Shown here piece by piece: positions 763-35,467 of a stretch of 61,749 nt of DNA (positions are counted from its first letter, which is position 1; the number at the start of each line of letters is the position of its first letter). Where the stretch lies: assembly GCA_045837725.1 (NCBI GenBank), contig JBEWZL010000237.1:124001-185749 (forward strand), given 5' to 3'. Made by a program: the position numbers and the translations under genes. The notes beneath the pieces were generated by a model. It had not been told where the DNA came from. It saw nothing but the letters and a program-made list of their open reading frames with translations, and made no database searches. The stretch comes from Vermamoeba vermiformis (lineage: Eukaryota).

Positions 763-919
763 TGTGTTGTAATAATACAAGAGATGTGGTGGATTGATTG
801 TTTGAATAGCTCAAATTGATGTGCATTAAATTTGCGTTAATTTTCCCACCAAACACGTGACTGCTACAGCGAGGGCCAGAGGTATGTATGACAATATGTA
901 TTTATGTACAATAGGGTGG

Positions 920-2093
920 TTACACTATGCGCACACGACGCGCGAAGGTCAAGTAGCCAGTGTGGCCGCGCATTTCAGGGAAGGGACGCGTCGTAATGAG
1001 GGATGTGGATGCAGCGCTCGGCGCATCATTAGTACTCGCAGTGCCAGTGTCTGAACTCTGCTCGCGCTTGCGTTTGTGACCGCGCTTGTTGTCTGCAGCA
1101 CTCGTCTTGACCTCGTAGTCGCGGAACAAACACTCCACGGTGCACACGTCCTCGAAGCGCGCCGTCATCAGTGCCGCACTCGTCTTCTGCACCTGTTCAA
1201 TGCAGGGACTGAAGGACACTACGCGCCCATTCACCTTCAGACTCCGCTGCACACTCTCGATCACCAGCCACGGGGAGGGCAGATCTAAGAACGCGGCGTC
1301 AGCGAGCACTGCAGTCACGTGCTCAGTGCTGCCGTTCACTGCACGGTGTTGCGTGTCCAGGGCTGTGCGCAGTGCAGTGCCATCAGTGACAGCCGTGTTG
1401 CCCTCGCTCGCTGTCTCCGCGCTGTTCAGCTGCACTGTGAAGCCACGTGCCACCACATCGCCGTGCACCACGTGGATGTGTCCCGTGTAGTCCAGTCCAC
1501 CGCGCGCCAGTCGCTTGAGTTGTTCCGTGATGTTGTGCGCTCGTTCGCGGTGGTACTCGAAGGTGACCACGTGACCAGTGGGCGCGACAGCACGTGACAG
1601 CGAGACAGTGAGCGAGCCCGAGCCCGTGCCACTCTCCAGCACCCAGTGACCGGGCCGCAGATCCAAGCCTGCCGTGACAATGGTGGCAATGTCGTGCGCG
1701 TAGAGAATTTCAGTGCGATGAGGACAGGCTTGCGTCCAGAGAGCGGCTGTTAGCGGCAACAACACGATCCAGCCTGACTTGCGATCTGCGCTGTAGAGCT
1801 GAAAATAGAGGATTAATTTACTATTGGCAGAGATCATGTTATTGATACTATTGTAGTAATTATAAACAATTTTGGTAATTTTAATAGAATTAAATTCGAA
1901 ATGCGTTGTCGTGAGTTACCTTCGATCCATATTCCAAACCAATCAACGAATCATGTTTAAAATTTCCGAATTTAGAATTCAAATATTGACCGGGAGTAAT
2001 CAATACGAGTTGCAGATTGTCTCGACTAATGTACGCGCAGACCACTTCACCTGCTTTGATGAGGTGCTTGCGCTTCAACACCACGCTACTCAT
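920..2093 (-). CDS. TRM61: tRNA (adenine58-N1)-methyltransferase catalytic subunit, 2 exons
   Basis: Exons 2093-1920 and 1798-920. Motifs PHRTEILY, VLESGTGSGSL, FLDLPSPW, SFSPCIEQV and GHTGYLTFAR. Confidence 0.93.
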
Positions 2094-2902
2094 TGCTGTG
2101 TGTTCGGCTGTGCGGTGCTGGTGAGTAACTGCAGCGCGGTCAGCACGGCCCCTGATGACGCGCACGACACGACATCGACACTCGGTCGGGGCACAGCGCC
2201 GTACAGCACCGACATGAACGCTGCCACCATCGTGTGCTGCACGTGCGCGGTGTCAGCAGTCACGCCACAGTCGCGCAGTGAGGTCAGCTCAACCCCGTGC
2301 AGACCACAGGGTCGGATGGGCTCCACGTACCGCCACTCGGGTGCGATGTTGAGTGCCAGGCCATGCATGGTCACGTGCCGCGAGACACTGATGCCCACAC
2401 TGCCCAGCTTGTGCGTCGCATCGGTCCACACGCCGCGCTTGGTCGGAACACTGCGCAAACACGTCAGTACTCAGTCTGGCCACATCCAACAGTCACGCAA
2501 CAACACTCACCCGCCATAAGCGCGCACTCCGTAGTGTGCGGCAGTGCGTATCATCACTGCTTCTAATCGCTCCACGTAGCCCTTCACGGTGCAGTGCAAG
2601 TGTCGCAGGTCAGTCACGTGATAGGCGCAGAGCACACCAGGGCCGTGATAAGTGACGTCACCACCGCGCTCCGTGGCCTGCACCGAGGCATGGAGCTCGG
2701 ATTCGATGCGTGACACTGGCCACAGCAGATTCGCGGGGTTCTGATGCCGTCCTAGCGTATATACAGGATCGTGCTCGACCAGCAACAAGCAGTCAGGTAC
2801 TTGGCCTGCTTGCCGTGCAGCGCGCAGTTGTTGTTGCAGGGAGAAGATCTGCTTGTAGGGTGATCGGGGCAGAAGGAATACGCGCAGTAATGTGCTCGTC
2901 AT
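2090..2902 (-). CDS. lipB: Lipoyl(octanoyl) transferase LipB/LIPT2, 2 exons
   Basis: Motifs LLVEHDPVYTLGR, TERGGDVTYHGPG, KLGSVGI, TMHGLALN and IRPCGL. Intron 2510-2451 keeps the frame. Confidence 0.93.
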
Positions 2903-3105
2903 GATTGTGGGGAATTGCTCTTGTAGACGGTGTTATTAATTGCTATGAGTTGGTTATTAATAATACCCGAGTTTCAGAAAAGAGTGCTAATTGCGCAGCT
3001 GCACGTGACTAAGCTGAGTTCAGTCGCGACGGGGCAAGGAATGAAGTGGTCACTTAACATCATATTTAAAGCTCCATTTATTGCGCGCAATCATGTTGCT
3101 ACACT

Positions 3106-3306
3106 CTAGCTTTGTTCTTTCTTGCGTTCTTCAGCTCTCTTGCCTGTCGTGAGATCGTTGCCAAAGTCATCAATCTCGTGCGCTATGACACCTCCGTTCA
3201 ATACAGTGTCCGGGCGGCCTTTGGATCTGTTAGACGGACTGAGTTTCATCACTGTGCCGTCACGCATCTGCGTATCAGAGCGGGTTCCGTCGACGTTTGA
3301 GTTCAT
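3106..3306 (-). CDS. Putative 66-aa small protein of unknown function
   Basis: ATG sits in the caacATG context seen at other starts here. Composition looks coding, and AATAAA lies ~25 nt after the stop. No recognisable family. Confidence 0.4.
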   Translation of the reverse strand: MNSNVDGTRSDTQMRDGTVMKLSPSNRSKGRPDTVLNGGVIAHEIDDFGNDLTTGKRAEERKKEQS

Positions 3307-3492
3307 GTTGTATGCTTGGTGATTAAACAATACAATAGCGTTGCAGTTAAATATGTAAACGGTACATGATGTCGCACAAGGGCAATTCACATCTAGCTGA
3401 GAATTCACCAAAATTCTTTGATTTTATGTGGTGCGGCAATAACAACTTTAACTACACTGAATATCTCTATGCTTGCAAATGTACTGATTCTC

Positions 3493-5033
3493 TCAGCGAT
3501 CAGTATTGTTGTTGCGCACTAGACTGCTCATGTAATACTCGCCAGCTTTGTAACTCGAACGCACCATTGGACCACTCGCGCAGTACTGTAGGGAGGTTAG
3601 TGGGCATATATATCGCCAACAGACGAGTATATGTTACCTTGAATCCCATTTGCAACGCGCTCTCTTTGAGCTCCGCGAACACATCTGGATGCACGAACTG
3701 CTCGACTTTGAGGTGTCGTTTGGTAGGCTGCAAGTACTGTCCTAGTGTCACTGCATCCACACCCGCTGCACGCAAGTCGCGGAAGGTCTGCAGCACCTGT
3801 TCGCGCGTCTCACCGAGGCCCAACATGAGCGAGGACTTGGTGACGAGATCTGGTCGCACGTGCTTGGCGTGTTCGAGCACCTGCAGCGACTGTCGATACC
3901 CTGCTCGATAGTCGCGCACCCACCGCTGCAAACTGGCACGTGTCAGTCAGTGAATGATAACCAAATTAGGCAATAACGTACCTCTCCACGGTCTCGAGAT
4001 TGTGCGCGTAGACATCGAGTCCTGAGCGTGCCATCACCTCCACCCACTGCAACTCACCCTGTGACACGTGTCAATCACTCGCCTGCACCGTGATTGGTCG
4101 TACCTTGAAATCTCCCGTGAGACACTCCACTAACATCTCGGGCTTGAGAGCTTTGATGCGCTGTACCGTGGTGGCAAAGTGACGCGCGCCACTGTCCGGC
4201 AATTCATCGCGGTCAACGCTGGTCAACACCACGTAGTCCACGCCCCACGTGGTCACTGCGCGCGCTGTTCGCTCGGGCTCTTCGGGGTCCAGTGGCGGGG
4301 GAGTGCGACTGGTCTGCGCAGGGTCAGTGCTATTTTTAGAACTGCATCACGTGATTGCGTTAAGATCACGTGCTCGTTACCTTGACCGCGCAGAATCGAC
4401 AGCCCCTGGTGCACGTGTCGCCCATCAACATCACCGTGGCGGTGCTCTGTGTGCCACCCCAGCACTCACCTCGATCGATCGGTCAGCTGCAATGCACGCA
4501 CAATCGAGCACTTACCTATATTTGGACATTTGGCCTCCTCGCACACCGTGTTCAGCTGTCGGGGGTGAGTACAATTGCTGGTGATTGCCTAATTTGGTAA
4601 CTTGATTACTGACCTCCAAGCCGCGCAGCTGCGATTTCATTCTTTGAAATTCCGCCCCGCTGGGAATCTGTGACTTGATCCAGGGCGGCAATCTTGCCTT
4701 TTTTGGTTGGGGAGTCACGTGATTGATTGGCCCTGGTTGAAGCGGCGGATCCACCTTGTTCTTGGTTCTGCGAATGTGTTATTTAAAGTTTGATCGTAGA
4801 CTATGCATTGCGTCATGTATTATCAAGTTGCTTCGGCTTACTCGGAGATATAATCATTCAGTTGCGGATCTTGCTGTTGCAATTTCTCGCGGAATGCATT
4901 TATATTCAATTTAGTTGTATAGGATCGCTTTTCATTGCGTGTAATTATTTTTCTTGTAATCTTGATGTCGTTAGTTCAATTTCAATGCAACTTTTGGTCA
5001 ACTTACGCGTTGGATTCGCGTCAAATTAATCAT
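3493..5033 (-). CDS. lipA: Mitochondrial lipoyl synthase (radical SAM), multi-exon
   Basis: Motifs [36 protein letters not shown] (CX3CX2C), [38 protein letters not shown] and [14 protein letters not shown]. Arg-rich N-terminal transit-like peptide from ATG 5033. Confidence 0.95.
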
Positions 5034-9188: not shown

Positions 9189-9273
9189 GGATGAATCCGA
9201 TTCTGAATGAAATTATCAATTTTATTAACAAACTGTACAGTAAATCACGTGATTTTTTAAGGACGCAGTGGCA

Positions 9274-11552
9274 CTACTTGTCCTTATTTAGAAATTTTTT
9301 ACAAGGGTGGTAATCGAGCTTGAAACAGGGCGGAACAACAGCCGTGGTGGCACTCGTCGAGGACTGCGACGATGACGTGGCAGTGTGTTGCATGCTGCGC
9401 ACGTGCTCATGCGTCTGTTCGCGAATGAGACCGATCACGTGCTCCAACACCTCGCTGTCACACGTGTCACTCACGCCCAACCGCTTCAACACATCACGTG
9501 ACTGCTGATCACGTGACGGCGCGCTGGTGGCACGTGGCAGTGACTTGTTCGAGTTGTGCGGTGAGCTCACACTGCCCCGCGGACGTCGCGCAGTGTGCAG
9601 CGTGGAGTGGTGGCACACATAGGCCCTGGTCGACCACTCGTACAGTGTCGTGCGCACGTGATACAGGTACGACTCCTCGTCGGGCCACTGCCGCCGCGTG
9701 CTCAACACCGCCGCGAGCAGCAGCGAGGTGTTGCTGGTGAGTGGTCCCCAGAGCCAGGCCAAGTCTTTGCCACTATTTATCGGCTCATCTTCCAGGGCCC
9801 ACACTGTCGCGTAGTTGTACACGTGCTGCGGAATAACTGTGCTCTTCGACACTCCCACCAAGCGAATTCTGTTCACGGCGAGGTGTGCCAGGGTGAGTCG
9901 GTTGCCTAATTTGGTAGTGTCGCACCACTCCACCGCGTGATACTGGCCGAGCAGCAAATATGCCAGGGCACGCACGCGATCGCGCACGAGACTCTGATTG
10001 CTGCCCTGGATGATCACTGGTCTGCCGCGCAGCAGCGAGTATACCAGGGCTCGAATCACGTGCGCGGAGATTGTGCCGTGATGTCGACCAATCAGCAGCG
10101 AGAGCAGTCCTTGACCACGTGCTCCATCTTGATAAAATTCCGCGGGCCAGAGCAGATCTACCAGGGCCTGTTGTTCCGCACTGAGTCCGAGGTCACGTGA
10201 CTGGTAGTTGAAGTCGAGCAGTGGCGTCTGATTCATGAACAGCGAGGATGTCACGTGCGGGTCTACATTCGCAGTCACGTGATCCACTGGCTCCACGCGG
10301 TACAGCACGTGAGGCAGTTGAAATTTCAGTAATGTCGTGTGCAGTGAAGGTCGCAGCCTATTTAGGTAATAGTCACGTGACAGCAGTTCGGGCAGTGCGC
10401 GCAGACTGCCGCGCTGTTGAGTCACGTGCCCGTCAGCCACTAGCGTGACAGGAGTGCGGAACAACAGCGACTTCAACAGCTTGGGCGTGTAGTGTCGGTC
10501 AGTCACGTGATGATCAATCTCGCGCGCAATCTCGAGCAGTTTCTTGCAGTCCTCGTCAGCCTCGGAGTCAGACTCAGCCCCTGACTCGTTGTTCGTGCTG
10601 CTGCTCGGTTCTTCCGCCGAGTGAAATGAATTCTCTTCTTCGTCCTCGTCCAAGTCACGTGATTCCTCGCCGTCACGTGCTGCACTCGTCTCGGCCAGCA
10701 GTTTGCTCTTGAACGCCGTCAAATCTCCGATCACCTCCGACACGGTGCTGGGCTAAAAATAGCTCGCGTCAGTGCTGGCAGTGGTGCGCAGTGACTTACC
10801 GTGGGCGGAATAACAGGCACGTGATCGTCGTTCTTGTCCTCGCGCACCGGGCCCTGCGCCATGACGCGCTGCGTGAGCTGCAAATCAGCCAAGCGACAGT
10901 CGAGCTCGTGCAGGAACAGCGCGTTGTTGTGCTGCTTGAGCGCCTCCATCACCACGCGCAGATCTCGCGCCATCTCCGAGAAGTGGCGATCGATCTTGTC
11001 CTGATCACGTGTCACGTAGACCAGGGCCAGGGGTCGCTGATAGCCACGTGCCTCAATGTCCAGCACGTAGAAGTGCACCACCACGGCGTGCACCACGTGA
11101 CTGGCACCGTTCAGTGGATCTGCACCACGCAGCACGGGGGAAGTGGCGGGAGATAGCGCGGGAGATGAGAGTACTGCCTTATAAGGCAATTGCATCACGA
11201 CAGTCCAGTGCTTGGTCCACGTGACAGGCTCGACACTCATGAAGCGCAGCACAAAATGATCGATCGGCAGCTGCGTCATGGCCTCCACTTGACTGCTCGC
11301 CACGTGGTCTGAAATCCACGCGCACGTGACTGACACGCCACTCAGCGAGGGACTGTCGTGGTCAGCGCGCAGCTCGTAGCCAGGATAGTGATGCAGCTCT
11401 GAGAGGTGCACTGCCGCGTCATTGCTGCTATTTATAGCCTCAGATCCGTTGTTGGTCAGCTCTTTGCCGCTCTGTTCTGCTGCCGTGAGTACGATGCGCG
11501 CGATAGGTCCTTCGATCTCACTGAACTCTGCTAATATAATGCAGTCACTCAT
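9274..11552 (-). CDS. SMCR8/folliculin-like longin-DENN protein, 2 exons
   Basis: N-terminal IILAEFSEIEGP and LDIEARGYQRPLALVYVT match SMCR8-type uDENN motifs. YSLLRGRPVII lies in the cDENN. In-frame intron 10799-10753. Confidence 0.75.
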
Positions 11553-12047
11553 CGCGTGGTGTTGAGTGGAATAGCAGATCTATATATAGCAATTAAATTG
11601 ATTAATTATTATTTGGGACTGGATCTGCTCTTGCAATGTGTCGTGCAGTATTCACAGTATCTCTGCCCTCTCTGTTAATATGCAGATATAATTAATTCAT
11701 TGGCACGCTATGCAAGGCAGATGAGCGAGTCCGCTTGACTTACGCGATCGAAACGTCAATTGAAGTACTGAATCCAAGGAGAGACGTCCAGCAAGGTGCA
11801 CGCAATATAGACAATGTAGTGATACTGCTCGGTGCTAGTTCGATCACATTAACGAACAAAATCTTTTTTTTATCGAAGTGATATTTTGAACTGGATTTGC
11901 TACCTGTCAACACAGCTCTGTTGCACCATGCTCCTTAGTTGTTGATCATAATCATTCGCATAATTACATACACCACGCAACAATAATTCAAGCGATTATT
12001 CAATTGCCTCTGCCTCATCCACCACTCTCCATTCAATTTCAGCGCTG

Positions 12048-14446
12048 ATGAGTGACAAACAAAAATCAGAGGAGGATAACAAGCCCAGTACATCGTCTGA
12101 TGAGAAGGGACTCAAAGGTAATCGATTCAATCGAATTCAAAAACAGATTTCATTTCAGTCTTCTTAATTTCCGGGCTTGATCTGCCTCTAATTGCTCCAA
12201 ACAACGAGATCATGTGGTAACGATATTAATACGCTATTATAGCGCGCGTCAAGAAAGCTCTCGCGCGGTTCTTCGTGCGCAGACCCGAGAAAAAAGAGCT
12301 GGAAGAGCGCAACATCCTCCACGACACTGCATCTGACGATCGCAAGCTGCGCGCCAAGCAATTGGAACTGCGCCTGTCTACACGCGTCAGCAAGGAGACG
12401 CTCGAACAGCTGCACATCTTGCAGCCCGGGCCCGAGTCCGATTCAGTCTCGCCACCTTTGTCGCCCACATCCAGCAGCAAATCCAGCGGCGTCAAAAAGA
12501 TACGCGACAAAGTGAATCGCAAGGCCTCGCAAATACGCGAATTCGTGCGCAGAACTACGCGCAAGGACGTCAAGTCCCACGACGATACTGACTTGCCTAA
12601 AAAGGAAACTAGTACACGTGTACACGACGCGCCCAGTCGTCGCGCGAAATTTAGCCGGAAATCTCGCTCGATGCCCGCTGTGGTCCGCTCGCGCAAGAAC
12701 AACGCGTACGTGTTTGGCGGATCATTGCCTAATATGGACATGAAGAATGTGGCGTGCGAGGGTCAGTTGGTGACAGTGCCATTAATAGCCACAGTCTGCG
12801 TGGACTACCTGTTGCCTAAAATAGAAATCGAAGGAATATTCCGTGTGTCAGGCAATCACACGGACATTGAGCGCATCAAGCGGCAAATTGACAAGACGCG
12901 ACAGTATCACGTGATCACGCAGTGCGACAACCCCAATACTGTCGCGGGCATATTCAAATCATTTTTCCGCGAATTGTCCGAGCCTTTGCTGACATTCGCG
13001 CACTACCAGCAGTTTGTGACAGCAGCGACACCTGACAAAAATAGCAGCAATCCCAACGACGAGGAGGCACGTGTCAAGCGTGCGGAACAATTGAAGGGCG
13101 TGCTGACTCGTCTGCCCAAAGAGAACTACGAACTGTTACTATATTTGGTATCGTTCTTGGTGAAGGTCAGTCAGTCAAGCAAAGTCAATCTGATGGACAG
13201 CAGAAATCTCGCGCTCATCTGGGGCTCGATCGTACTGCGCGACGAGCACGAGGACACGACCTCCGTGACCGCACTCACCAACACGAGTCACCAGGCTGCG
13301 GTCATGTCGCTGCTCATCGATCACTTTGAGCTCATTTTCAAGACTGCTAAAAATAGCGCGGCACCTGTCAAACCTGTCAACAACAACACACCGCCGAGCT
13401 CGATGAGTGCCACCATGGGCCCTGTTCCCTCGTCTTCCATGACCTCCACACTGACACCGATGACAGCCACTGTGACACCTGTCAACAACAGCACTCTGCC
13501 GCAGACCTTCAGCTCACCAGCCATGTTGACAGCTAAGCCAGTGACACCTGTCAACACGAGTGCTCCAATGAGTGCCCCTGTCAAAACACCTGTCACTGGC
13601 ACTGCTCCTCCCAAGTCACGTGGTCCATTGCCCGCACCACCGCCACGTGTAGGCAAAGCTGCGACGATGAAGGCGCCTGTCAAGACAGCAGCGGTCAAAT
13701 TCACCTCGGTGGAAGTGCCCTCCAACACCAACAGAGGGCCCACTAATGATAACAGCAACACCGCGGAACCAGCTGCGGCTAAAAATAGTCCACCGAACAA
13801 CACCATCCCCGTGCTCGGTGCTGCCTACCCAGTCTCCGTGGAGAAACGTGGCACAGTGCCAGGCGATGGCACACAGAGCTCGGAGCCCAAAAGCGAACCA
13901 ATGCGCGTGCGTGCCATCACTACAGGCCAGTCTGACAAAGAGACACATGTCAAAGCAGCACCTGCACCACGTGTCGGCAATGACAGCAATCAACCGCGCG
14001 TACCTGTGACACCTGTCAATTCGAGCACTCCACAAAGTGCCCCGGTCAAGACACCTGTCAACAACAGTCCTCCAATGAGTGTCCTAGTGACACCTGTCAA
14101 TACCAGCACTCCACAAACTGCCCCTGTCAAGACACCTGTCAACAACGGTCCTCCAATGAGTCCGTCGAGCAAGACACCTGTCAAACGGCCAGTCGTGCCA
14201 GCTGTCACCCCGCCCAGTGCGAGTGCTGTCAAAGATGCGCCCTTGCTCTCTCCGCCCTCCACGGCACCCAAGAAATCTCCCGCTGGACCCAAATCCCCAT
14301 CAAACACAGGTGCCGGACCCCTCTCCGTACCGCTGAATGTTGCTCCGGTCAAAACTCCCCCGACCCCGCCACCACGTGCCAAAACACCCGTGACCACTTC
14401 ACCGAAAGAACCGCGTCGATCGTATTCGCTGCAAACACTGAATTGA
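12048..14446 (+). CDS. RhoGAP with N-terminal RPEL (G-actin-binding) motifs and a Pro/Thr-rich tail, 2 exons
   Basis: RRPEKKELEERNIL and a second RPEL-like LSTRVSKETLEQLHIL. GAP motifs EGIFRVSG (arginine finger), KSFFRELSEPLL and NLMDSRNLALIWG. Intron 12118-12242. Confidence 0.88.
13350..14200 (+). repeat. Coding imperfect repeats (ACACCTGTCAA; TPVN/KTPV peptide units)
   Basis: About ten (ACA)CCTGTCA units, plus a ~26-aa tandem duplication at ~14000-14160. Confidence 0.8.
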
Positions 14447-14459
14447 TTGCGAATAGTCG

Positions 14460-15762
14460 AGTTGTAAATTATTAAACACACCTTATTTATTTGTACATAC
14501 AAGGGTACTGCAGCGTACATTAAATTGTGCGGGGCATCAGGGGCTGGAGCCTCTTGTGGTGGCACACTGCCAGCATTCTGCAGCTCTGCGTGGCGTTGTT
14601 CACTCTCGTGTCGCTTGGCCTCGGGCACATCGCGTTCACGAGATCTGCTGCGCTCTCGCTTGCGACCACTGCGCTCTTTGTTCTCACCGCGGTCACGTGA
14701 TCGCGATCGACTGCGTTCACGACGATCACGACGTCTGTCACCACCGCGGTCACGTGATCTTGAGCGCGATCTGGAACGGCGTGAAGAACGTCGTCTGTCA
14801 CCACCGCGATCACGTGATCGAGATCTGGAGCGCGAGCGTGACTTGCGCCGGTGCACTTTGCGCTGCCAATCATTCACTTTGCGATTCAGTTCGCGCGGCA
14901 CTGGTCGCAAGTGCATAAAGTTGCAGAAGCCACCGCGCGCACACTCGCCCATGTCGTACTGGCGACAGCGTGCCTCGCGGAAGTCAGTCACGGGGGACAG
15001 CTCGCAGATCAGCGGTCGACCTCCGTAGTAGCGGCCCTTGCAGGTCTCGAGGGCCTTGCGCGCAGCATCTTCTTCGCGGAACTTGACGTAGACATTGCCC
15101 ATCAAATGATCGCCGAGATTGGCGCAGACATTGAGCTCTTCGACTTCACCGAACTGCGCGAGTTCCGTGAACACATCCTCGTAGAACTCTTCAAAGTGTT
15201 TCTGCGCCTCTTCTTGATCGAACAGGGGCTCACCTGTCGGGGCATATTGATTGAAGGGTGGCTGGTACATGCTCGTGAACAGCACCGTTTGACTCTCCGT
15301 CGGTCGGTTGTGCAATCTGCTGCAGCGCTCACCGTGTCGACAAGCACCGATCTTGAAATAGAACGGGCAGTTGACTCTGTGCGGTAATAAATAGAAGGGT
15401 TAGATTATATTATTAAAATAGGAGGCGAGTGCTGTGCTATAATAAATACGTGCTCAACGAAGCAAACCTAAATTAAAATCTGTTCCTAAATACATGATAA
15501 TTTGTTAGTCCCTTTGTCAATAGGAATTATTAATATTAATATTTTATCTAACGCTAAATTAATTGTCCGAACATATTATGAAAAATACGAAAATGGTTGG
15601 ATTAATATGAAAAGATTTTTAGGCATTTGAGAAGATAGTTAATAATGAAAATAATTATTTAAATAATTATAGCTGAGTAAGCACATAAGTACATAATGTA
15701 AACTGGAGCGCATCTTACTTGTCTTGTTCGGTACCGTAGATTCGTTGTAAATGATCTGCCAT
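14460..15762 (-). CDS. U2AF1: Splicing factor U2AF small subunit (U2AF35); 3' end uncertain
   Basis: [37 protein letters not shown], a UHM (NLGDHLMGNVYVKF), a second CCCH finger and an RS domain. No in-frame stop until 13990. Confidence 0.93.
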
Positions 15763-15961
15763 TGTTGTGTGGTTATGGACAATACAATAAGTGTGGTTCA
15801 CAACAGATGATCAAATAGTTAAATGAATTGACACTCGGCTAAGCCTTTTCTCTTGGACAAGAACGAGCACGTGATTTGAAATTTCAGCCGAATGCTGTGA
15901 ACTTCTAGAACGATGAGTAGCTACATATGAATACTTTCGTTTATTAAACTAGGCAAGGGCT

Positions 15962-18637
15962 CTAACTGCGCAGAGGTTCAATAGTGATCAAAACCTTGTT
16001 CTCTTCGACCAGATCTCCGACCTTGTAATTGACGGCAGTGACGGTGCCAGCAAATGGACTGCGAATGGTGTGCTCCATCTTCATGGCCTCCAAGATGAGC
16101 AGACTCTGATTCGCACTCACCTGATCGCCCTTGTTCACACTCACTTTGATCACTTTGCCCGGCATCGGAGACTGCAGCGACGCGGCACTCGTCTTCGCGT
16201 CACGTGACACGGGTTCTAATTTAGGCAAGACGGGCTCCAGGGTGAGCTGACCGTTCACTGAATGCACGGTAATCTCGCCGTGAGTGCCGACCATGACGTC
16301 GAATTTCTGCAAAGTATTGCCGAGGTCAGCAGTCACGTGATACGAATTCGGTTCTGTGCCGCGCTGCACAGTACCGCGCACGTGTTTCATCACGTGTTCA
16401 GTGTGCTTGTCGTGCTGCACGGTGAGAGTGAGCGAGTGATCGGCGTGATAGGCCACGTGCACGGTCAATTCTTCCTGCGCAATGTTGGGGCGCCACTTGA
16501 ACACGCGCTCAGCAGTGTGATTCACGCGGAATGCATCGGCACTCTGCCACGGGTCACTGCTGTCACGTGCGGCGAGTTGTTCGTGCAGCACTGCAAACAG
16601 TGTCGCGTACCCGACATCACGTGGCTTGATGAGATCGTTGGCTTGCGGCAACAGCTCGTCTTTGAATTTCTGTCACGTGGTCAGTTCAGTGCATCACGTG
16701 ATTGCCTTATATAGACATACCGCAATGAAATTGGTCTCGACATTGCCCGCGATGAATTCAGGGTGTGCAGCACAGCGCTTCAAGAACTCAATGTTGTTGT
16801 GCACGCCTGCCACCTGTGTGTCACGTGATCAGTTACCAAATATAGACATCACACTCGCTGCACGCACCTTGTACTGTTCGAGGGCAGTGGTGAGTCTGCG
16901 CAGGGCAGTGGGTCGGTCCACATCGTGCACAATCAGCTTGGCAATCATCGGATCGTAGTACACCGACACCACATCGCCACTCGACACGCCGGTGTCCACG
17001 CGCACTTGCGACGAGCTCGCGGGGGGATCGTGCACCACCAGTGTGCCCGTTGACGGCAAGAAGTCCCTGACATTGCAATCAGTACCCTGCACACACACAC
17101 GTGTCTCCAGTGTCTTACTTGAGCGGGTTCTCAGCGTAGATGCGTGCTTCAAAGGCGTGGCCATTGATGCGCAGCTGTTCTTGCTGTGTGATGGGCAAGG
17201 GCTGACCATTGGCCACTCGGAGCTGCCACTCGACGAGATCGAGGCCCGTGATCATCTCGGTGACTGGGTGCTCCACTTGCAGGCGCGTGTTCATCTCCAT
17301 AAAGTAGTACTGATTGTCCGTCGTGTCCATGATGAACTCCACTGTGCCCGCACCTCTGTAGCCCACGGCACGGGCTGCATTCACCGCTGATTGGCCCATC
17401 GCACGGCGCAACTCTTCTGACACGCCAGGCTGTGACACGTGTCAATCAGTGACCTGCACCATCGCGCACATTCATGACTGCCACTTACCCCCGGAGCCTC
17501 TTCAATCACCTTCTGATGACGACGCTGCAGCGAACAGTCGCGCTCAAACAAATAGAGGTAGTTGTCGTAGTTGTCGCCGAAGATTTGGAACTCGATGTGG
17601 CGTGGCACCTGCAAATAGCGCTCGATCAACAGACCCTCGGAGCCGAACGATGCCTTGGCCTCGCGTCTGCTCGATTCCAAATTAGGCAACATGTCCTCGC
17701 TCTTCCAGACAATCTTCATGCCCTTGCCACCACCTCCCTTGACGGGCTTGATCAGCACGGGGTAGCCCATCTTGTCGGCCTCGCTGATCAGTCGCTGATT
17801 GTCCTGATCTTCGCCGTGATAGCCCGGCACTACAGGCACCTTGGCCTGCGACATGATGGTCTTGGAGGCACTCTTGCTGCCCATGGCTCTGATGGCACTC
17901 GCGGGGGGACCAATGAACACCACGCCGTGCTGGGCACACTGCTCTGCGAACACGGGATTCTGTCGCGCAGTTAGTCACTCGCAGCACACTAGGGACACGT
18001 GCTCTATTCAACGCACCTCGCTCAAGAAGCCGTAGCCAGGGTGTATCGCTTCAGCCCCGCTGTCACGTGCCACACTCAAGATGTGCTCCATCTTCAAGTA
18101 GCTCTCAATTGCAGGGGCGGGTCCGATGTGATAGGCCTCGTCTGCCATCTTGACGTGCATGGCGTGCTTGTCTGCATCCGAGTATACGGCGACAGTTTGA
18201 ATGCCCAGTCTGCGTGCTGTGCGCATCACTCGACACGCGATCTCACCTCTGTTGGCCACGAGAATCTTCTTGAACAGCGCTGCGGACAGTCAGAACAGAC
18301 AGGACGAGCTGTGTACTTACGCTTCTTGTCGTGCGTCGCGTACTGGCGAGTCTGCACGTGTGTGAGCACGGAGGGCAGCGTCACTCGCGCTGAAGTTCTC
18401 AATCTGCAGTGGTGAGGTCAGCAATATGATTTTTAATTGGACGTAATGCATGTCATATACATCGATGTGCCTTGCATTAACGTTAGAATTATTAAGATAT
18501 TTTTATTGAATTAATTTTTCAATTTTTTTGTTAATTGAAAGGACACCGTGTCAGTCGCGGACTTGACCCCGAGAATAGCGCATAATATGCACGGATTAAT
18601 ATACGTACCGAGTGCAGAGTCTGGTCAATAAAGACAT
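15962..18637 (-). CDS. MCCC1: Biotin-dependent carboxylase alpha subunit, most likely 3-methylcrotonyl-CoA carboxylase alpha (mitochondrial), multi-exon
   Basis: Motifs [66 protein letters not shown] and the biotinylation motif EAMKM. Transit peptide [17 protein letters not shown] from ATG 18637. Confidence 0.87.
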
Positions 18638-20800: not shown

Positions 20801-23800
20801 ATGGAGCACGACACCAAACAGGGCCCGAGTGCGGCCAAGACCGAAGAACAGCTCGCTGTGGAGCGACAGAAGAAAGAGAAGAAAGACGCCAAGGCTGCTG
20901 CTAAAGCTGCTAAGATCGCCAAGGCTAAGGAGAAACAAGCTGGACAGGGCAAGAAAGAGACTAAGCCCGCTGATAATAACAAACCCGAAGCTGAGGTAGG
21001 CAGTGTTTGACATTACGAGGTGCAATGGCGTTAATTTAATTGTAATTATAAGCAAAATTGTTTTCTTTTTATTTTAAAAATTCGTTAAAATTCTGCATTT
21101 GTGAGTATGTCGTTATTATCAATATTCGATCACAATATTATACAAATAAATTTAATGGATATGAAACTGACGTGACGCGATCTGATCAGAAAAAGAACGA
21201 GAAGAAAGAGAAAGGCATTCGTCTCAAAACAGCCTATGTCAACACGACCCCCAAGGGCGAGAAGAAAGGTGCGTATTGAACTGACTTTCATAACACCGCG
21301 CACTGCTGACAGGACTCGATCTAGATGTGAGCAACGACGACGCGTTCTTGCACGAGGACTCAGCCTACGACCCCTCCGTCGTCGAAGCAGCGTGGTACGA
21401 CTGGTGGGAGGCCCAGGGCTACTTCAAGCCCGATTACAACGCCGATCCCAACGCGGAGAAGTTTGTCATCGTCATTCCCCCGCCCAACGTGACTGGTGCG
21501 CTGTCGATCGATGCACATGTCCAAATAAGGCAATCTAACGCTCTACTTGGCAGGTTCCTTGCACTTGGGTCACGCGCTGACGAATTCCATCCAAGACTCG
21601 GTGGCACGGTGGCACCGCATGAACGGCAAGAAGGTGCTGTGGGTGCCGGGCACTGATCACGCGGGCATTGCGACACAGACTGCGGTGGAGAAGCGCATCA
21701 AGAAGGACGGACTCACGCGCCACGACTTGGGCCGCGACAAGTTCTTGGAGAAGGTGTGGGAGTGGAAGAACGAGTACGGCGGGCGTATCTTGCAACAGCT
21801 GCGTCGCTTGGGCAGTTCGCTGGACTGGTCGCGCGAGGTGTTCACGATGGACGACAAGCTGTCGCGTGCAGTGCGCGAGGCCTTTGTGCGCATGTACGAC
21901 ATGAAGCTGATCTACCGCGCCAACAGACTCGTCAACTGGTGCTGCGCGCTCAAGACTGCCATCTCGGACATTGAAGTGGACGCAGAGGAGCTCGAGAAGA
22001 AGACCAAGAAGCGCGTGCCCGGCTACGACAAGGAGTACGACTTTGGGCTGATCTACAAGTTCTGCTATCAAGTCGAGGGCAGCGAGGAGTTGTTGGAGAT
22101 TGCCACCACGCGTCCTGAGACCATGCTCGGTGACACTGCCGTCGCTGTGCACCCTGATGACCCGCGCTACAAGCACCTGCACGGCAAGTACCTCGTGCAC
22201 CCCTTCGTGCAGCGTCGCATTCCGATCATCACCGATCCGATCTTGGTCGACATGAGCTTCGGCACTGGTGTCGTGAAAGTGACTCCCGCGCACGATCAGA
22301 ACGACTTTGAGTGCGGCAAGCGGAACAACTTGCCCATGATCAACATCCTCGACGACGATGGCCGCATCAACGAGAACGGCGGTGAGTTCAAGGGCATGAA
22401 GCGATTTGAGGCGCGCGATGCCATCATCGTGGCACTGAAGAAGCTCGGCCACTTCAAGGGCTCAGCACCCAACAAGATGGTGCTCAAGACGTGCAGTCGC
22501 AGCGGTGATATTATTGAGCCACTCTTGAAGCCACAGTGGTGGGTCGACTGCAAAGAAATGGCGCGTCGTGCGGGTGAAGCGGTGACCAACAAGCAGCTCG
22601 AGATCTTGCCTGCGCGCTACACCAACACCTGGTTCGAGTGGTTGCGCGACATTCGTGACTGGTGCATCAGTCGTCAGCTCTGGTGGGGCCATCGCATCCC
22701 TGCCTGGCTCGTCACACTGCACGGCCAAGCCGCTGACGGTGCAGATCCGAACTGCTGGATTGTGGCACGTGACGAGACTGAGGCACGCAGCAAGGCTGAA
22801 GCTAAATTTGGCAAGGACAAGGTGGCCAAGCTCGAACAGGACCCCGATGTGCTGGACACGTGGTTCAGTTCGGGTCTGTTCCCGTTCAGCGTGTTTGGCT
22901 GGCCCGACAACACGTCCGATCTGCAACAGTACTACCCGACGCAGCTGTTGGAGACTGGCAAGGACATTCTGTTCTTCTGGGTGATGCGCATGGTGATGAT
23001 GGGCCTCACCCTCACCGATCAGCTGCCCTTCAAACAGGTCTTCTTGCACCCCATTGTGCGCGATGCACACGGCGAGAAGATGGCCAAGAGCAAGGGCAAT
23101 GTGATCGATCCCATTGACGTGATTGAAGGCATCACCCTGCAACAGCTGCACGACGGTCTCTACAAAGGAAATCTCGATCCACGTGACATTGAAGCTGCCA
23201 TTGAAGTGCAAAAGCGAGATTTCCCGCAAGGTATCAGCGAGTGCGGCACTGACGCGCTGAGATTTGCGCTGTGCTCGTACATTGGTGGTCAGGGCAACGA
23301 CATCAATCTCGACATCAATCGCGTGGTGGCCTATCGCAACTTCTGCAACAAGCTCTGGAATGCCACCAAGCTCGCCTTCACCTTCATGGGCCACGACTTT
23401 GTGCCCAACAACTACAGCGAGACGCAGCGCACTGGGCACGAGACTGAGTGGGACACGTGGATCTTGGGTCGATTGCAGTGTGCCGTGGAGGGTGCCAACA
23501 AGGGCTTTGAGAGCTACGAGTTCAGTGACTCGACGCAGGCCATCTACAGCTTCTGGCTCTACGACTTCTGCGATGTGTACTTGGAGGCCATCAAGCCCCT
23601 CATGGCTGCGAACTCCACCGTGTCCAGCGAGGCACGTGACACCATCAAGCACACGCTGTAAGTATATCACACGTGCTGTCATTCACTGAACGGTATACTA
23701 ACACTGCACACAGCTTCACCTGCTTGGAAGTGGGCTTCAGACTGTTGCACCCCTACATGCCGTTCTTGACCGAAGAACTCTGGCAGAGACTCACACGTAA

Positions 23801-24371
23801 GGCGCGTGCTCAATTCGCACCCTCGCTGTGCGTGGCCAAGTACCCGCGCACGATTGGCGAGCGTTCAGTGAAGCTCGAAGAAGAGATTGAGCGCGTGATG
23901 CAAATTGTGCACGGAGCACGCACAGTGCGTCAAGTGTACAACTTGAAGGGCAAGGACCGTCCTCCTCTCGTGATCAACACGCACACCACACGTGACAAGG
24001 AGCTCTTGTCGAGTCACGTGTTCGTGTTGGCGATGCAGTCCCTGGCCCGTGTGGGTGACATCAGCATCACCTTCAACGAGTCACAGCCCCCTCTCGGCGC
24101 TGCTTCCGCCATTCCCAACAGCAGCACTGAGATCTACGTGGTGATCAAGGACTTGGTGGATGTGGACACAGAGATTGGCAAGCTCAATGCGCAGATCAAA
24201 AACCTCGAAGATCAGATTGCTGGCCTCGAGAAGAAGCGTGCGGACCCGAACTGGGAGACCAAGACCCCCGCCAAGGTGAAAGAGGCGCTGCAGACCAAGC
24301 TCGACACCGTCAACAGCGAACTCGCCATTGCCCGCACAGCTGTGGAGAACTTCAAGAAGTTGAAGAACTAA
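20801..24371 (+). CDS. VARS1: Valine--tRNA ligase, multi-exon
   Basis: Motifs [58 protein letters not shown] and KMAKS, plus a C-terminal coiled-coil arm. Confidence 0.96.
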
Positions 24372-24431: not shown

Positions 24432-26280
24432 TTATTGTTGACACCACTTGACAGGTCGACTGCTCCACACGTGCAGTCCTCGTTGAGACCAATCACGTGG
24501 CAGATCTTCAGTGCTAATGTGCCAATGATAGACACGACACTCGTACAGCTGTTCACTCGGCACTCGCACACTGCCAGGTGCCACTAGCCACACTGTTTGA
24601 TCCTCTGTCGCCTGTGCCTTGCTTATGACCCCTGTCAACATGTCATAGTCTGCGCCTTGCAAGTCAATGACACGTGTCTTATCGAGTGTAGCAGGCAATG
24701 ACAGCAAGTGACGTGGTGGCATGTAAGTGTGATAATAGATGATGGAGTGCTCGCCTGGGGTCACTGAGGTCGCAGTGCCTAAAAATAGCAATGAAGGGAC
24801 CACACCCGACTGGTGACAGTACCCGAAGAACACGGCCAATAGAAGATTGAACAGCAGCCACACGGACCAGAACTTTGACACGATCTTTTCACTGAACAGC
24901 AGTGTCAGTGGTGTCAACAGCGGCAAGATGAAGCGCGGCTCTTGATGCGGTGCGAGTGACAGCACACCGACACCTGTCACACAGCACGCCATCAGTGTCA
25001 GCTGCCAGGGGTCACGTGACAAGATGCGCGGCACGTGCCACAAAAAGAGTAGCCACAGTGGCCCAAACATGAGCACTCCGTTCACAGTCACGTGCAAGTA
25101 GTGTGGATGTAACACGTGCTGCGCCAAGTTCTCCACTTTAGTGTTGTACTGCAAATTCGACCAGGGCGTCACGTGATAGATGTCTGGGATATGGCCCTGG
25201 AGCAGTGATCGCAGAGTGACATCTGATTCATAGAACAACGTGTCACACGTCACCCACAGTGCTGCACCGCACAACAGTCCTGATGACACGTGTCAATCGC
25301 TGACTTCTACCATTGCTTGAACTTACCTGTCAACATGCTCACACCGCACACCATAGCGCGGAACAATCCATTTTTCCGCCACTGCGCGTACAGCAAGAAG
25401 AGTGGCACAGGTGCGATGAATGCCATAAAAGTAAATCGCGTCCACGTGCCAGCACTGACCAGCACGCCAAGCATCACGTGATTGCACCACCATGAACGGT
25501 ACGTGTCACTCGTCAATTTGACCGCGAGCCACAAACAGACTGCAAAGATCACGTGCTCGATGGTGTTGGAGAAGCCAGTGACCATAAAAGTCAATGTGGT
25601 CCAAGATGAGCCAAGCACCATCAATTGCTGATTGCCTTTTAAGGAAAATCTCTTTTGTTTCATGCCAGTCATGGCGATGTCGTACGTGAGCTTGTCTAAA
25701 TAAGGCAATCAGCCACTCAGTGCTACAAATAGCTGCGTACCCAACACGATTGACAGCACGAACATCCACAGTCGCGGCGCGTAGTACAGCACTGGTCCTG
25801 CATGCAGATCTACCTAGTGTCAGACTCGTAATGCAATGTGACACGTGACTTACTGACTCCCAGTAACTGCTCGACTGCCTTTATTACCATATAAGGTAAG
25901 CCACTCGATAATGCTCTGTAATAGTGTCAATAACATTGCCTTAAATGGCTATCGTTGCTACTTACGGACTGACAATCGAGCGGATCGGACTAGGCAATTG
26001 AAACTCCCACGAGACATGAGCTGTAACATCGAATATACGACCAGCCATCACTTCTGAGGACTGTACAGTGAATTGATAATTAGCGCGAATAATTAGCAAA
26101 ATATCTTGGTCTATGGTCCTGAGATTAACACGCGACTAAATTAAACCCCAACATATTATTCAGTGGCCTATCAACATATAATACCTGGAAATAACCATCG
26201 GGATGAATGTAGCCAGTGCTCGTGAATACGAATAATAGGCGCACCGCCAACAGTAGTAAGTACCACGGCGTAATTTCCAT
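24432..26280 (-). CDS. GPI mannosyltransferase 4 (PIG-Z/Smp3-like, GT22), multi-exon, with divergent motifs
   Basis: Motifs GYIHPDGYFQS, SWEF...PIRS, FSNTIE, LSLAPHQEPRFILP, HQSGVVP and HTYMPP. Multiple hydrophobic segments. Confidence 0.85.
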
Positions 26281-26719
26281 TATAGTCGCATTAGCTATTA
26301 ATATATATATTACAATGCGCACTTGTGTGGTGATTGATTAAATAAAATCGTGGATCTGACGCAGACACCCAATTTTTTTCGTGCCGTCAGCTGAAATTTC
26401 GGCCCTTTTTGCAGATACGGCCAGTATCTGATACTGTTGATGTAATAGAAGCGTCTATCATATTTGACGTTGTTATTGTAAGAACCTCGCGAATAGAGGG
26501 AATTGCCGCCAAAAAAAAAGCGCCTCGGTATATTGCTTGAACTTGGTCTCAATTGTATTAACAAGCGTTTATAGTATCAATAAATAAGTATATTTATTTG
26601 TTTTAAATTAATTACACGCGTATTTTTTTTTGCTAAAAGTTAAAATTAGATCCGCAGCATTAGAGGGACCAGAATACAACTACAAGTCACTCAAGAGTGG
26701 TGCTGAATCAACGGTTCAT

Positions 26720-28342
26720 TTAGCTGTCGTCCTTCTCGTTCTTAGACTGCATAATAAAACATTAGTCCTATATTCAAGCGAGCTCGAGCAGTCACATCTG
26801 AGCTACTTACCGAAGCAGTTTGTTGCTCTTCAATTTCGCGTTGCTTAAGCAAGACTTGCAATTTTCTGTTCTCAGAGCCCAAAGCATCGGCCAAGTACTC
26901 GAGTTGATCTTCAAAGTTGCGGTCAATAATTTCTTTTTCTGTTCTCTCTTGGATCTTCTCAGATTCGTATTCGCGGTCTTGCTCCAAGTAGTCCTTCCAT
27001 CTGTTCATGTCATTCAAGTGCTCAATCAAGTTCTTGCGCAACAGATCGAGGGCCTTGAGTTCCAAAGCAGATCTTTCGTCCACTTTCTCCTTCAACTTGT
27101 TGTACTTGGCGCGCAATTCAGCGACTTCATTTTCAAGAGCTTCCTTCTCGTTTTGGAGCTTGGCATTGCGAGCCTCAGACTCCTCGTACTTAGCCTTCAA
27201 CGCGTCGTGATCAGCAGTCAAGTTCTTGTATTTCTTCTCCAAGATCTCTTTCTCTTCCAATGTCTTGGCCAAATTGTCCTCCAAACCAGTCAATTTGTCC
27301 TTGGTCTCACGTTGAGCGCTCTGCAAATTTATTAATACAGTGCATCATAATAACGTCGCAGTATTTTTATAAATTATTTTTAAAATTTAAAAATCTTTTT
27401 GTGTCACATCCGAAACAGCAAAAAAATCAATTTACACCAAAATCTCATTAATTAACGCTTACCTCAAGTCGTCGCTTCTCTTCTTGAGAAACAAAGGCGT
27501 GGAAGAACAAAGAGACGTACAAGACGATGGAACGCTCGTCAATAGTGCCGTTAGCAAGCTCGTTCACATCCAACAATTTAGGCACGCCCAAGCTCTTCTC
27601 GGCGAGTTCGAAAGCAGCTTCGATGTTCTCGATTGAAGAGTTTTCTTCCATATATTCGTTGTAGTTAAAGAGCTTAGGGTCGAACTTGTGGACCATAGCC
27701 AAGAAAGCCAATCCGTCATTGAAGGAGTGGCCAAAGTCTGTAATCTTAACACCAGCATATCCGTTAGTAATTTCACGGACCCACTTGAGCAAGTTCTCTT
27801 CGGTGGAACGATCTTCGGCGCCTTGGATGTGAGTGTTGATTCTGAATTTACGGAAAAGCATCCAAAGGAAACCCAAAATGAATTTGAGGTTCTTGTCGAC
27901 AAAGTCTTCAGGTGAGATAGTCAACATCTTTTGTTGGACGCCGTTATCTTTCAAAAAGTTGAGCGCGATGGAGCAGTTCTCGATTTTGTTAATCTTGTTC
28001 TTGGGTTGTTTTGAGTATTTAGTCTTAATGCGCGAGTCCAACAACAATTCAATGAAGTCGATGACGGTGATACCATCAGAGAAGTCCTCCTCCAATTCGT
28101 TGGGCGAGTTAATCTTCTTACCGCGTTTATCCAAGTAGGAGTTAACCCAGTAAGTGAAGGCCTATTTAATTATTACTCTGGTTAGTAATATTTCGGGCAT
28201 ATTTTTTATCGTCCTAGAGCATTTAACAGACGATAGTGAATTAAAATATTAGCAAATAAAAACTAACCGTTTTTTGAACTTGTTCCCAAGCTCGATCCTT
28301 CATTTCTTCTTCAACGTCCTTAGGCTTGTTATCGTTCGACAT
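26720..28342 (-). CDS. Cortexillin-like actin-bundling protein (2 CH domains plus coiled coil), 4 exons
   Basis: Tandem CH domains (WEQVQKTAFTYWVNSYL, NLKFILGFLWML, SFNDGLAFLAM, DERSIVLYVSLFFHAF), a coiled coil, and a cortexillin-like tail (LRKNLIEHLNDMNRWKDYLE...ENRKL). Confidence 0.8.
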
Positions 28343-32908: not shown

Positions 32909-33102
32909 CGGTGAGGCAAAAGATAAAGTTTATATAATACAATGTTGGCAACAACTCTGAATTATTGTTCTTCTCTCTCGCGTACTGGTTCAAATGTCTA
33001 GTTACGATTCAAAATTCATAAATCACCGAGGAAATCTCGCTTGAGTTTAAATCAATTTACTAAGTTTGTCGTAGTATAACGCAATGCTTGCTGAAGAAGA
33101 TA

Positions 33103-35379: not shown

Positions 35380-35467
35380 TGTGTTGTTCACTCGCGATCA
35401 GTGATTTTCATAAAAGTTCAACCAGTGCACGAAGCAATTAATTTTCTAAATGCGCTGAGCAACAACC

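Follow-up and report, generated by a model that had tools for sequence, protein, structure and literature searches.

A stretch of 61,749 nucleotides from Vermamoeba vermiformis (contig JBEWZL010000237.1, positions 124,001 to 185,749, assembly GCA_045837725.1), hereafter called the window, contains a large excess of the hexamer CACGTG within gene bodies, which an initial annotation had noticed in an SMCR8-like gene at 9240-11330. The core hexamer belongs to the ten-base palindrome RTCACGTGAY (R, purine; Y, pyrimidine), a lineage-specific and hyper-abundant sequence that in a subset of genes is spread across whatever is transcribed, namely the exons, the short introns and the beginning of the 3' untranslated region. 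All statistics given below rest on this one window and on one 3.4-kb relative, the metagenome contig L001.

Results

CACGTG is over-represented beyond composition and codon usage

CACGTG was found 113 times in the window, compared with 21.31 ± 4.89 expected from 100 dinucleotide-preserving shuffles (largest value 37), which corresponds to a 5.3-fold excess. The region 9240-11330 contained exactly the 27 copies that had been estimated for it (all in 9246-11328), whereas the accompanying expectation of about one was slightly low, since 1000 dinucleotide shuffles of the region gave 2.18 ± 1.48 with a maximum of 9 (12-fold). CACGTG was the most frequent hexamer both in the whole window (runner-up ATTATT, 67 copies) and in 9240-11330 (followed by TCACGT with 15 and ACGTGA with 14), and no other hexamer was enriched to a degree near that of CACGTG. 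With both strands counted, 190 copies were present in 1-26 kb against 25.8 and 36.9 expected from first- and second-order Markov models, respectively, and 190 of the 300 ACGT tetramers in this part were located within CACGTG, the other xACGTy words having 1-16 copies each.

Genes were delimited with our own approximate gene models, obtained by a dynamic-programming search over short GT...AG introns and with imperfect 5' ends. Pfam matches identified TRM61/GCD14, the alpha subunit of methylcrotonyl-CoA carboxylase (MCCA), a U2AF35-like protein, an Alg9-like mannosyltransferase of family GT22 (PIG-Z), valyl-tRNA synthetase (ValRS) and a RhoGAP protein (Table 1), and no Rfam families were found in the window. 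The assignment of the gene at 9240-11330 as SMCR8-like was borne out by the match of its first exon (10800-11579) to human SMCR8 (PDB 6lt0_B, E = 1.5e-10) and to Pfam Folliculin (E = 4.4e-5).

Two codon controls were applied to these genes with 300 shuffles each, one exchanging synonymous codons within amino-acid classes and the other permuting the codons. The excess persisted in both. The SMCR8 exon 9274-10752 contained 19 sites compared with 7.9 (maximum 13) after the synonymous shuffle and 1.6 (maximum 6) after permutation, and the similar excess that had been claimed for four further genes was recovered in each of them (PIG-Z exon, 9 sites versus 4.0 and 1.1; MCCA C-terminal exon, 7 versus 2.6 and 0.9; TRM61, 5 versus 2.0 and 1.0; U2AF35, 4 versus 0.5 and 0.7). 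RhoGAP was also above both expectations, with the same ordering as the other genes. Given that both shuffles fall short of the observed counts, the motif has shaped the choice among synonymous codons as well as the amino-acid sequence. The 4.5-kb gene at 50.3-54.9 kb, for which about three copies had been noted as a contrast, contained exactly three (50971, 52470 and 52924).

An artefact of codon, dipeptide, GC or CpG content was considered as an explanation, given that site density correlates with GC and that part of the excess is contained in the amino-acid sequence, as seen from the difference between the synonymous and the permuted SMCR8 exon (7.9 versus 1.6). However, the dinucleotide shuffles, the Markov models and both codon shuffles all fall short, no other hexamer approaches CACGTG, and introns are the densest class (see below). 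For the window this explanation is refuted by these results and we assign it hardly any probability.

A ten-base palindrome with strand-symmetric flanks

The full motif RTCACGTGAY was present in 22 copies compared with 0.36 expected in the window (61-fold), and all of them were located within 1-26 kb. The extended form TCACGTGA, which had been described as frequent, accounted for 8 of the 27 sites in 9240-11330 and for 22 of the 113 sites in the window, and all 22 were flanked by R and Y. When 93 sites were oriented according to gene strand, position -2 was a purine in 79 and position +2 a pyrimidine in 74, and the commonest bases at -1 and +1 were T (36 sites) and A (44 sites), respectively. 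Upstream flanks did not differ statistically from complemented downstream flanks, with p = 0.26 for offset 1 and p = 0.56 for offset 2. Because the flanks are symmetric with respect to transcription, the feature is one of the duplex, as recognition of a duplex would give, and this showed that the motif is recognised or created as a double-stranded, strand-symmetric sequence independently of the reading frame. No spacing periodicity or helical phasing of the sites was found; among the many periods scanned the best amplitude was 2.2, and neighbouring sites were at least 12 bp apart.

The sequence R-T-CACGTG-A-Y is the consensus of the sites bound by USF, by TFE/MITF (the coordinated lysosomal expression and regulation, CLEAR, element) and by Cbf1. 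The features of the consensus for basic helix-loop-helix leucine-zipper (bHLH-Zip) proteins, namely T at -1, A at +1 and a 10-bp palindrome, were all present.

The excess follows transcription units and is greatest in introns

In the gene models of 1-26.1 kb, exons contained 75 sites in 16.7 kb (4.5/kb) and introns 13 sites in 1.35 kb (9.6/kb), and the remaining DNA had 6 sites in 8.05 kb (0.75/kb), three of which were within 100 nt past a stop codon; one additional site straddled a model boundary. It is therefore transcription units that carry the excess, most of all where there is no protein constraint. A site was found in 12 of the 23 modelled introns, including all four introns of the lipoyl-synthase-like gene and five of six in MCCA, where the intron 16670-16720 had two. 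In the SMCR8-like gene, the site at 9246 is located 28 nt past the stop codon. In several introns of 45-60 nt, the motif exactly fills the gap that separates the branch-point-like motif from the 3' AG. Among candidate introns, the motif was present in 10 of 31 in 1-26 kb compared with 1 of 43 in 26-62 kb.

These locations could point to a function at the RNA level, in which the self-complementary 10-mer would act in the pre-mRNA, where copies can pair with one another, and might serve RNA structure, the splicing of tiny introns or the binding of a protein specific for double-stranded RNA. The limitation of the excess to transcription units, including the three sites at most 100 nt past stop codons, is compatible with such a role, as is the exact placement ahead of the 3' AG in several introns. 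A 900-nt stretch of the SMCR8 mRNA also gave a better fold than every one of 20 shuffled versions (z = -3.27), although this indication is weak given that the palindromes themselves predict it. Against a general splicing signal stands the single motif-bearing intron among the 43 candidates of 26-62 kb; furthermore, the 10-mer also occurs in a promoter-like composite (4714-4731), the motif matches a classic DNA-binding consensus, and a palindrome by its nature lacks strand asymmetry, the feature by which an RNA role could be demonstrated. We therefore regard an RNA-level function as improbable.

Introns of unrelated genes were also found to share modules of 18-31 nt with 90-95% identity (D3, D10, D11 and D16), with 90% identity over 31 nt for D3 and 95% over 20 nt for D11. 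In a comparison aimed at introner-like elements, no full-length similarity was seen among the introns overall (mean column identity 34%). The paired segments were 4059-4089 and 17430-17460, 4343-4362 and 16690-16709, 21518-21535 and 25693-25710, and 4580-4600 and 9049-9069, and the shared modules combine the CACGTG E-box, a CC(W)6GG box (W, A or T; see below) and splice signals. They may reflect an introner-like common origin or strong convergence.

Imprint on codons and proteins

The set modelled for codon frames comprised 4284 codons and 72 sites. The motif occurred in all three frames (codon boundaries shown by hyphens), with 34 sites as CAC-GTG, 31 as xCA-CGT-Gxx and 7 as xxC-ACG-TGx, the last frame being limited by the TGA stop codon. 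The claim that sites are found in more than one frame and also in introns therefore holds. The flanking preference extended into the neighbouring codons: following CAC-GTG, the next codon began with A-Y in 15 of 34 sites (background 12.5%), and the third codon of xCA-CGT-Gxx encoded Asp in 19 and Glu in none of 31 sites, compared with 16% Asp and 18% Glu among G-starting codons in the background.

Correspondingly, the proteins (5,723 modelled residues) showed the enrichment of HV, HVT and SRD that had been visible by eye, with 39 HV versus 16.7 expected, 11 HVT versus 1.1 (9.7-fold) and 11 SRD versus 1.4 (8-fold). The tripeptide class [ASTP]RD was present 23 times versus 5.3 expected, and the control class [ASTP]RE 5 times versus 6.4.

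The effect on conserved residues was surveyed in ValRS at the 13 positions with a motif in either the window or L001, using outgroup columns (n = 39). At three positions conserved residues (DTW, FTC and NTW) carry the motif by synonymous choice alone. At two positions a conserved residue was replaced: Asp has taken the place of a Glu that is present in 37 of 39 outgroups, and Thr occupies a column of Lys or Arg. The remaining positions are variable columns that were turned into xRD. Non-synonymous change toward the motif, for which orthologue alignments had been proposed as a check, has thus overridden two conserved ValRS columns. The exonic ValRS sites aligned to orthologues without gaps, by which insertion footprints as the source of exonic sites were ruled out. 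These results showed that the motif bends codon choice and some amino acids. The suggestion of a DNA-level overlay on coding sequence is in agreement with all of these observations: the codon shuffles, the use of three frames, the density in introns, the symmetric flanks and the replaced amino acids.

For SMCR8, four close relatives (86-99% identity) were found and nearly all HV and [AS]RD positions were kept in them; distant SMCR8 orthologues that could have served the imprint test were not found. When compared with 9274-10752, one relative (P0122, columns ~415-433) has an expanded run of [AS]RD-[LQ]-Q, of which the window protein has two units, and this expansion consists of tandem duplications of motif-encoding units.

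Motif-rich and motif-poor parts of the window

The sites were unevenly distributed, with 95 of 113 located within 1-26 kb (Table 1). Site density increased with GC content (Spearman 0.53), and open reading frames (ORFs) with a GC content at third codon positions (GC3) below 0.5 had 0 or 1 site, compared with 0 to 12.8 per kb in those with GC3 of at least 0.6. With GC matched at 0.47-0.52, 1-26 kb had 3.27 sites/kb and the remainder of the window 0.74 sites/kb, a 4.4-fold difference.

Table 1. Genes and other features of the window that bear on the CACGTG excess (positions in the window; sites are copies of CACGTG).
Feature	Position	Strand	Remarks
TRM61 (GCD14) gene	800..1915	-	6 sites; site 854 just past stop codon
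Lipoyl(octanoyl)transferase-like and lipoyl-synthase-like genes	2001..4800	-	4 and 8 sites; named by eye
Promoter-like composite	4714..4731		Full 10-mer, then directly CCAAT-type box TGATTGGC
SMCR8-like gene	9233..11579	-	27 sites; exons 10800-11579 and 9275-10752; 47-nt intron 10753-10799
RhoGAP gene	12230..13989	+	6 sites
U2AF35-like gene	14450..15399	-	3 sites: 14694, 14751, 14811
Methylcrotonyl-CoA carboxylase alpha (MCCA) gene	15850..18499	-	16 sites
Valyl-tRNA synthetase gene, 3' part	22766..24370	+	8 sites, one in intron 23658-23713
PIG-Z / Alg9-like mannosyltransferase (GT22) gene	24433..26099	-	13 sites
Motif-poor remainder	26001..61749		18 CACGTG, no RTCACGTGAY

It had been proposed that the motif may mark the bodies of housekeeping genes, and this idea was not upheld. 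No sites were found in a ubiquitin-conjugating E2 gene (~7.7-8.45 kb), in a CH-domain exon (27448-28161) or in 19776-22766, which holds the 5' part of ValRS, and the RBM22 ORF (43295-44002) had one site. Together with the contrast at matched GC, this indicated that a housekeeping role is not what discriminates rich from poor genes.

The shift between the two parts also included other signals. Of the candidate introns, 20 of the 31 in 1-26 kb had yTGAy as their last branch-point-like motif, compared with 12 of the 43 in 26-62 kb, and candidate-intron GC was 0.47 and 0.39, respectively. The compositional shift is therefore regional and reaches splice signals (branch-point-like yTAAy to yTGAy). 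A chimeric assembly as the reason for the break at 26 kb was rejected, since the intron style is identical on both sides and the two parts thus derive from one organism. A general depletion toward 5' ends, as in gene-body methylation, was also rejected, given that it was seen only in ValRS, whereas in SMCR8, MCCA and PIG-Z some sites are located close to the 5' end. Similarly, the CpG depletion expected of a target of gene-body CpG methylation was absent in the motif-rich 1-kb bins (at least three sites), in which CpG observed/expected was 0.76-1.35 and mostly ~1.0-1.1.

Three further features of the motif-rich part were recorded. The segment 5000-7600 had no long ORFs, no Pfam matches and a single CACGTG (7085), and CpG observed/expected at 5-7 kb was 0.25-0.65 compared with ~1 in the rest of the window; this segment could represent either a non-coding locus or the remains of a decayed element. 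The RhoGAP ORF (12230-14446, + strand) and the U2AF35-like ORF (13990-15399, - strand) overlap on opposite strands. At 13350-14190 there are tandem-like repeats of 39-42 nt and 81 nt, each with CCTGTCAA, and 14 of the 18 window copies of this sequence are located there (both orientations counted). The three sites of the U2AF35-like gene fall in a 57-60-nt repeat (D6) of its low-complexity C-terminal part.

Companion motifs

Two additional motifs were enriched. The palindrome CC(W)6GG, which we take to resemble a CArG/MADS-box site, was present 19 times versus 2.0 ± 1.2 expected, with 15 copies in 1-26 kb (3961-25948) and the others at 33573, 41184, 53559 and 59647. It was mostly found in CACGTG-rich genes, in both introns and exons, often with the flanks TTGCC...GGCAA, and in several short introns it was located directly past the 5' splice site. 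At two copies in the SMCR8 exon (9905 and 10357) the encoded residues are conserved in relatives. The CCAAT-type octamer TGATTGGC, presumably NF-Y-like, was present 13 times versus 2.5 ± 1.6 expected, across the whole window and partly inside ORFs such as RBM22 (4724, 14865, 17388, 19315, 30617, 39501, 40140, 43067, 43674, 43928, 50929, 59678 and 60143). CACGTG is directly followed by ATTGGC at 39497 and 40136, and at 4716 the box comes after ATTG. The composite at 4714-4731 is located upstream of the lipoyl-synthase-like gene, as judged from the gene model.

Site turnover between relatives

The best named matches to ValRS were amoebozoans with at most 64% identity, which makes the organism of the window probably an amoebozoan as well. 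The contig L001 was syntenic with 22320-25671 (the 3' part of ValRS and PIG-Z) at 85.3% nucleotide identity, and 99 of 268 four-fold degenerate sites differed between the two (0.369). L001 contained 17 CACGTG in 3,356 bp and the matching part of the window 20, compared with at most 0.32/kb in the other 79 loci of the same scan. Eight sites were shared, 12 were found only in the window and 9 only in L001, which gives retentions of 8/20 and 8/17, compared with 0.41 for all hexamers and 0.36 for hexamers with a central CG. Site conservation beyond background hexamer retention was thus not seen in this small sample from one relative. Many of the differences were synonymous flips within Ala-Arg-Asp or Asp-Thr-Trp tripeptides, and both aligned window intron sites (23670 and 25287) were missing from L001. 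Hence, the comparison of window and L001 sequences showed a density that is conserved while positions turn over. Judging from this pair, a directional force, either selection or drive, must have been generating sites at neutral positions, and this must have lasted at least until the two lineages were about to split.

The number of [ASTP]RD tripeptides in ValRS was 5 in 928 aa in the window, 6 in 666 aa in L001 and 3 in 849 aa in the 95% identical P0001, compared with a mean of 0.57 per 1000 aa in 119 other orthologues and with 0-1 in each of P0003-P0016 (at most 68% identity). No eukaryotic relatives were found in genome contigs with the SMCR8 and ValRS queries or in viral contigs, the 80 loci obtained with ValRS all being bacterial-titled (best 48%). 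As far as sampled, a narrow clade is thus all to which the phenomenon extends.

Equal retention of the sites and of any hexamer would also be seen if they were the relic of a burst that took place before the window organism and L001 diverged from their common ancestor, spread partly by intron modules and now decaying neutrally. Such a history would fit the loss of both window intron sites from L001 and the motif-bearing modules shared by introns of unrelated genes (D3, D8 and D11). It would also fit the xRD tripeptides in ValRS, of which about 4 of 5 in the window and about 4 of 6 in L001 still use motif-forming codons, as expected from one-step decay of a saturated ancestor at a four-fold divergence of 0.37. 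However, an ancestor with ~42 sites per 3.35 kb would be required, and introns would have needed ~4 times today's 9.6/kb, given a neutral hexamer survival of ~0.25 per lineage at 0.369 divergence. The gap-free alignment to orthologues argues against inserted elements in exons, and a relic merely shifts the question back, since a strong motif-specific force would still be needed shortly before the split. A relic is about as improbable in our judgement as the RNA-level function.

Comparison with the cyanobacterial HIP1 palindrome

The closest analogue in kind is the highly iterated palindrome HIP1 (GCGATCGC) of cyanobacteria. In two papers, HIP1 is described as 15- to 300-fold over-represented and as present within and between ORFs, with selection and methylation-linked repair being debated as causes (PMC5861425, PMC4390886); Xu et al. 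describe sites conserved between relatives (PMC5861425), and Elhai describes a cognate orphan methyltransferase in the genome (PMC4390886). The motif of the window is likewise a short GC-rich palindrome with a many-fold excess, located inside and between reading frames and lineage-specific. An over-representation of at least 15-fold, as for HIP1, was observed for the 10-mer (61-fold), and CACGTG itself reached 12-fold in 9240-11330 and 5.3-fold in the window. As with HIP1, coding and non-coding sequence and all frames were occupied (34/31/7; 12/23 introns), although untranscribed DNA was near chance (0.75/kb). Unlike in the description of HIP1, conservation beyond the neutral level was not found in the small sample from the one relative (8/20 and 8/17 versus 0.41). 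In contrast to HIP1, the motif is here found in a eukaryote with introns, occurs only where certain genes are transcribed and not chromosome-wide, and is a classic eukaryotic transcription-factor site.

This analogy leads to the main rival of the reading favoured below, a HIP1-like drive in which near-cognate sequences would be converted into the motif, either through a DNA modification specific for CACGTG or through mismatch repair or biased gene conversion that depends on context. The excess would then be a neutral or mildly harmful by-product and would peak in DNA that often forms heteroduplexes or undergoes transcription-coupled repair. Turnover at the background rate (8/20 versus 0.41) in two relatives that both keep 5-6 sites/kb is compatible with such a drive, and the overriding of conserved ValRS residues is something that biased conversion can do. 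The correlation of density with GC (0.53), the 0-1 site in ORFs with GC3 below 0.5 and the yTGAy shift in branch-point-like motifs (20/31 versus 12/43), a sign of regional AT-to-GC (weak-to-strong) pressure, point in the same direction. The potential near-cognates were also depleted in 1-26 kb, with observed/expected of 0.16-0.34 for CATGTG/CACATG and 0.22 for AACGTG/CACGTT; however, this depletion is unspecific, given that other xATGTy words are equally rare (4-28 copies each). Methylation-dependent repair has already been proposed for HIP1 (PMC4390886). A six-base enzyme leaves the R/Y preference at ±2 (79/93 and 74/93) unexplained, and CpG observed/expected of ~1 gives no sign of mutagenic CpG methylation. 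Furthermore, the low density in untranscribed DNA of the rich domain (0.75/kb) means that the drive would need to be coupled to transcription, and the 4.4-fold difference between the two window parts at equal GC also speaks against it. Taken together we consider a HIP1-like drive unlikely, though clearly less so than the RNA-level and relic explanations.

Discussion

Hyper-abundant motifs that overlay coding sequence are known from bacteria, as exemplified by HIP1, uptake sequences and Chi. In a partial search of the literature we found no report of a eukaryotic hyper-abundant coding-overlay motif or of exons and introns enriched in an E-box.

The reading that we put forward, tentatively and as the leading candidate rather than as a probable one, is that the sites form a lineage-specific array that a bHLH-Zip-like dimer would recognise in duplex DNA and that would be kept as a density rather than at fixed positions. 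A dimeric bHLH-Zip-type protein with a specificity like that of USF, TFE or Cbf1 would read the sites, and weak, pervasive selection would retain many of them in the bodies of particular genes, with introns and weakly constrained protein segments absorbing most. The sites could then act as a sequence-encoded gene-body mark, for example by holding a chromatin state or licensing expression; such a function as a chromatin or licensing mark is a guess. We prefer this array reading to the alternatives because the 10-mer equals the USF, TFE-CLEAR and Cbf1 consensus, because a six-base enzyme would not impose the flanks at ±2, because at 4714-4731, ahead of a gene, the 10-mer adjoins a CCAAT-type box and because further transcription-factor-like motifs, CC(W)6GG and TGATTGGC, are enriched as well.

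Several points weigh against the array reading. The binding by a bHLH-Zip protein is predicted from a consensus sequence. Transcription-factor sites are normally few and promoter-proximal, and the location expected for promoters or enhancers with few copies was not what we found (75 sites in exons, 13 in introns and 6 elsewhere, with up to 27 per gene); we know of no precedent for 27 sites in one gene body, and dimers bound within genes might hinder transcription. The background-level retention gives no positive sign of selection on any site, and equal retention would also result from neutral drive or from the decay of a relic. If both relatives had only lost sites, the ancestral number would be ~42 in 3.35 kb (capture-recapture), which is high but not impossible. 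Some intron sites are moreover contained in 20-31-nt modules that are common to introns of unrelated genes (D3 and D11), and part of the intron excess may therefore have been inherited from a common source. Finally, the strong difference in density between genes (3.27 versus 0.74/kb at matched GC) is not accounted for.

Three known systems other than HIP1 can be compared. With the class B E-box, CLEAR and centromere DNA element I (CDEI) sites of USF, TFE/MITF and Cbf1, the motif shares an identical core and matching flanks, and one copy is located beside a CCAAT-type box. The known sites are few and belong to promoters, enhancers or centromeres, whereas a single gene of the window can contain as many as 27, most of them exonic or intronic, and binding to them is predicted from sequence. 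The uptake sequences of Pasteurellaceae and Neisseriaceae (uptake signal sequence, USS; DNA uptake sequence, DUS) resemble the motif in being short coding-region motifs that leave a peptide imprint. They are not palindromes and are tied to bacterial natural transformation, whereas no DNA-uptake route is known or implied for the organism of the window. Such sequences are described as coding-region motifs that co-evolve with the proteome and produce characteristic peptides (PMC2817400). A functional analogy only can be drawn to the periodic An/Tn clusters (PATCs) of C. elegans, which are also a gene-body sequence feature of a subset of genes. PATCs are intronic, abundant in a gene subset and protect from silencing (PMC4947018), and their form has been ascribed to transcription-coupled mutational bias (2026 preprint 10.64898/2026.08.08.743475). 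They differ in being AT-rich, 10-bp periodic and confined to introns, compared with the GC-rich, discrete and aperiodic palindrome described here, which is also exonic.

In the widest formulation, dozens of RTCACGTGAY per gene, placed in exons and introns at a cost to codon choice and even to conserved residues, would constitute a gene-body mark evolved in one eukaryotic lineage. This mark would be either read on duplex DNA by an ancient bHLH-Zip-type factor or written by motif-specific modification and repair, and it would set the chromatin or 'self' status of a defined class of genes. We consider this possible but somewhat doubtful. If it were true, the motif would be the first eukaryotic counterpart of the bacterial HIP1 or uptake sequences. 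If the sites are read by a protein, a transcription-factor site would be usable as a dense intragenic code that reshapes proteins, and HVT and xRD peptides would be tracers for it in protein databases. If the cause is instead a drive by repair or conversion, the window would be a clear example, in a eukaryote, of molecular drive directed at one motif and able to fix non-synonymous changes in the face of purifying selection. In both cases, these genes constitute a compact and testable system with relatives that exist in metagenomes.

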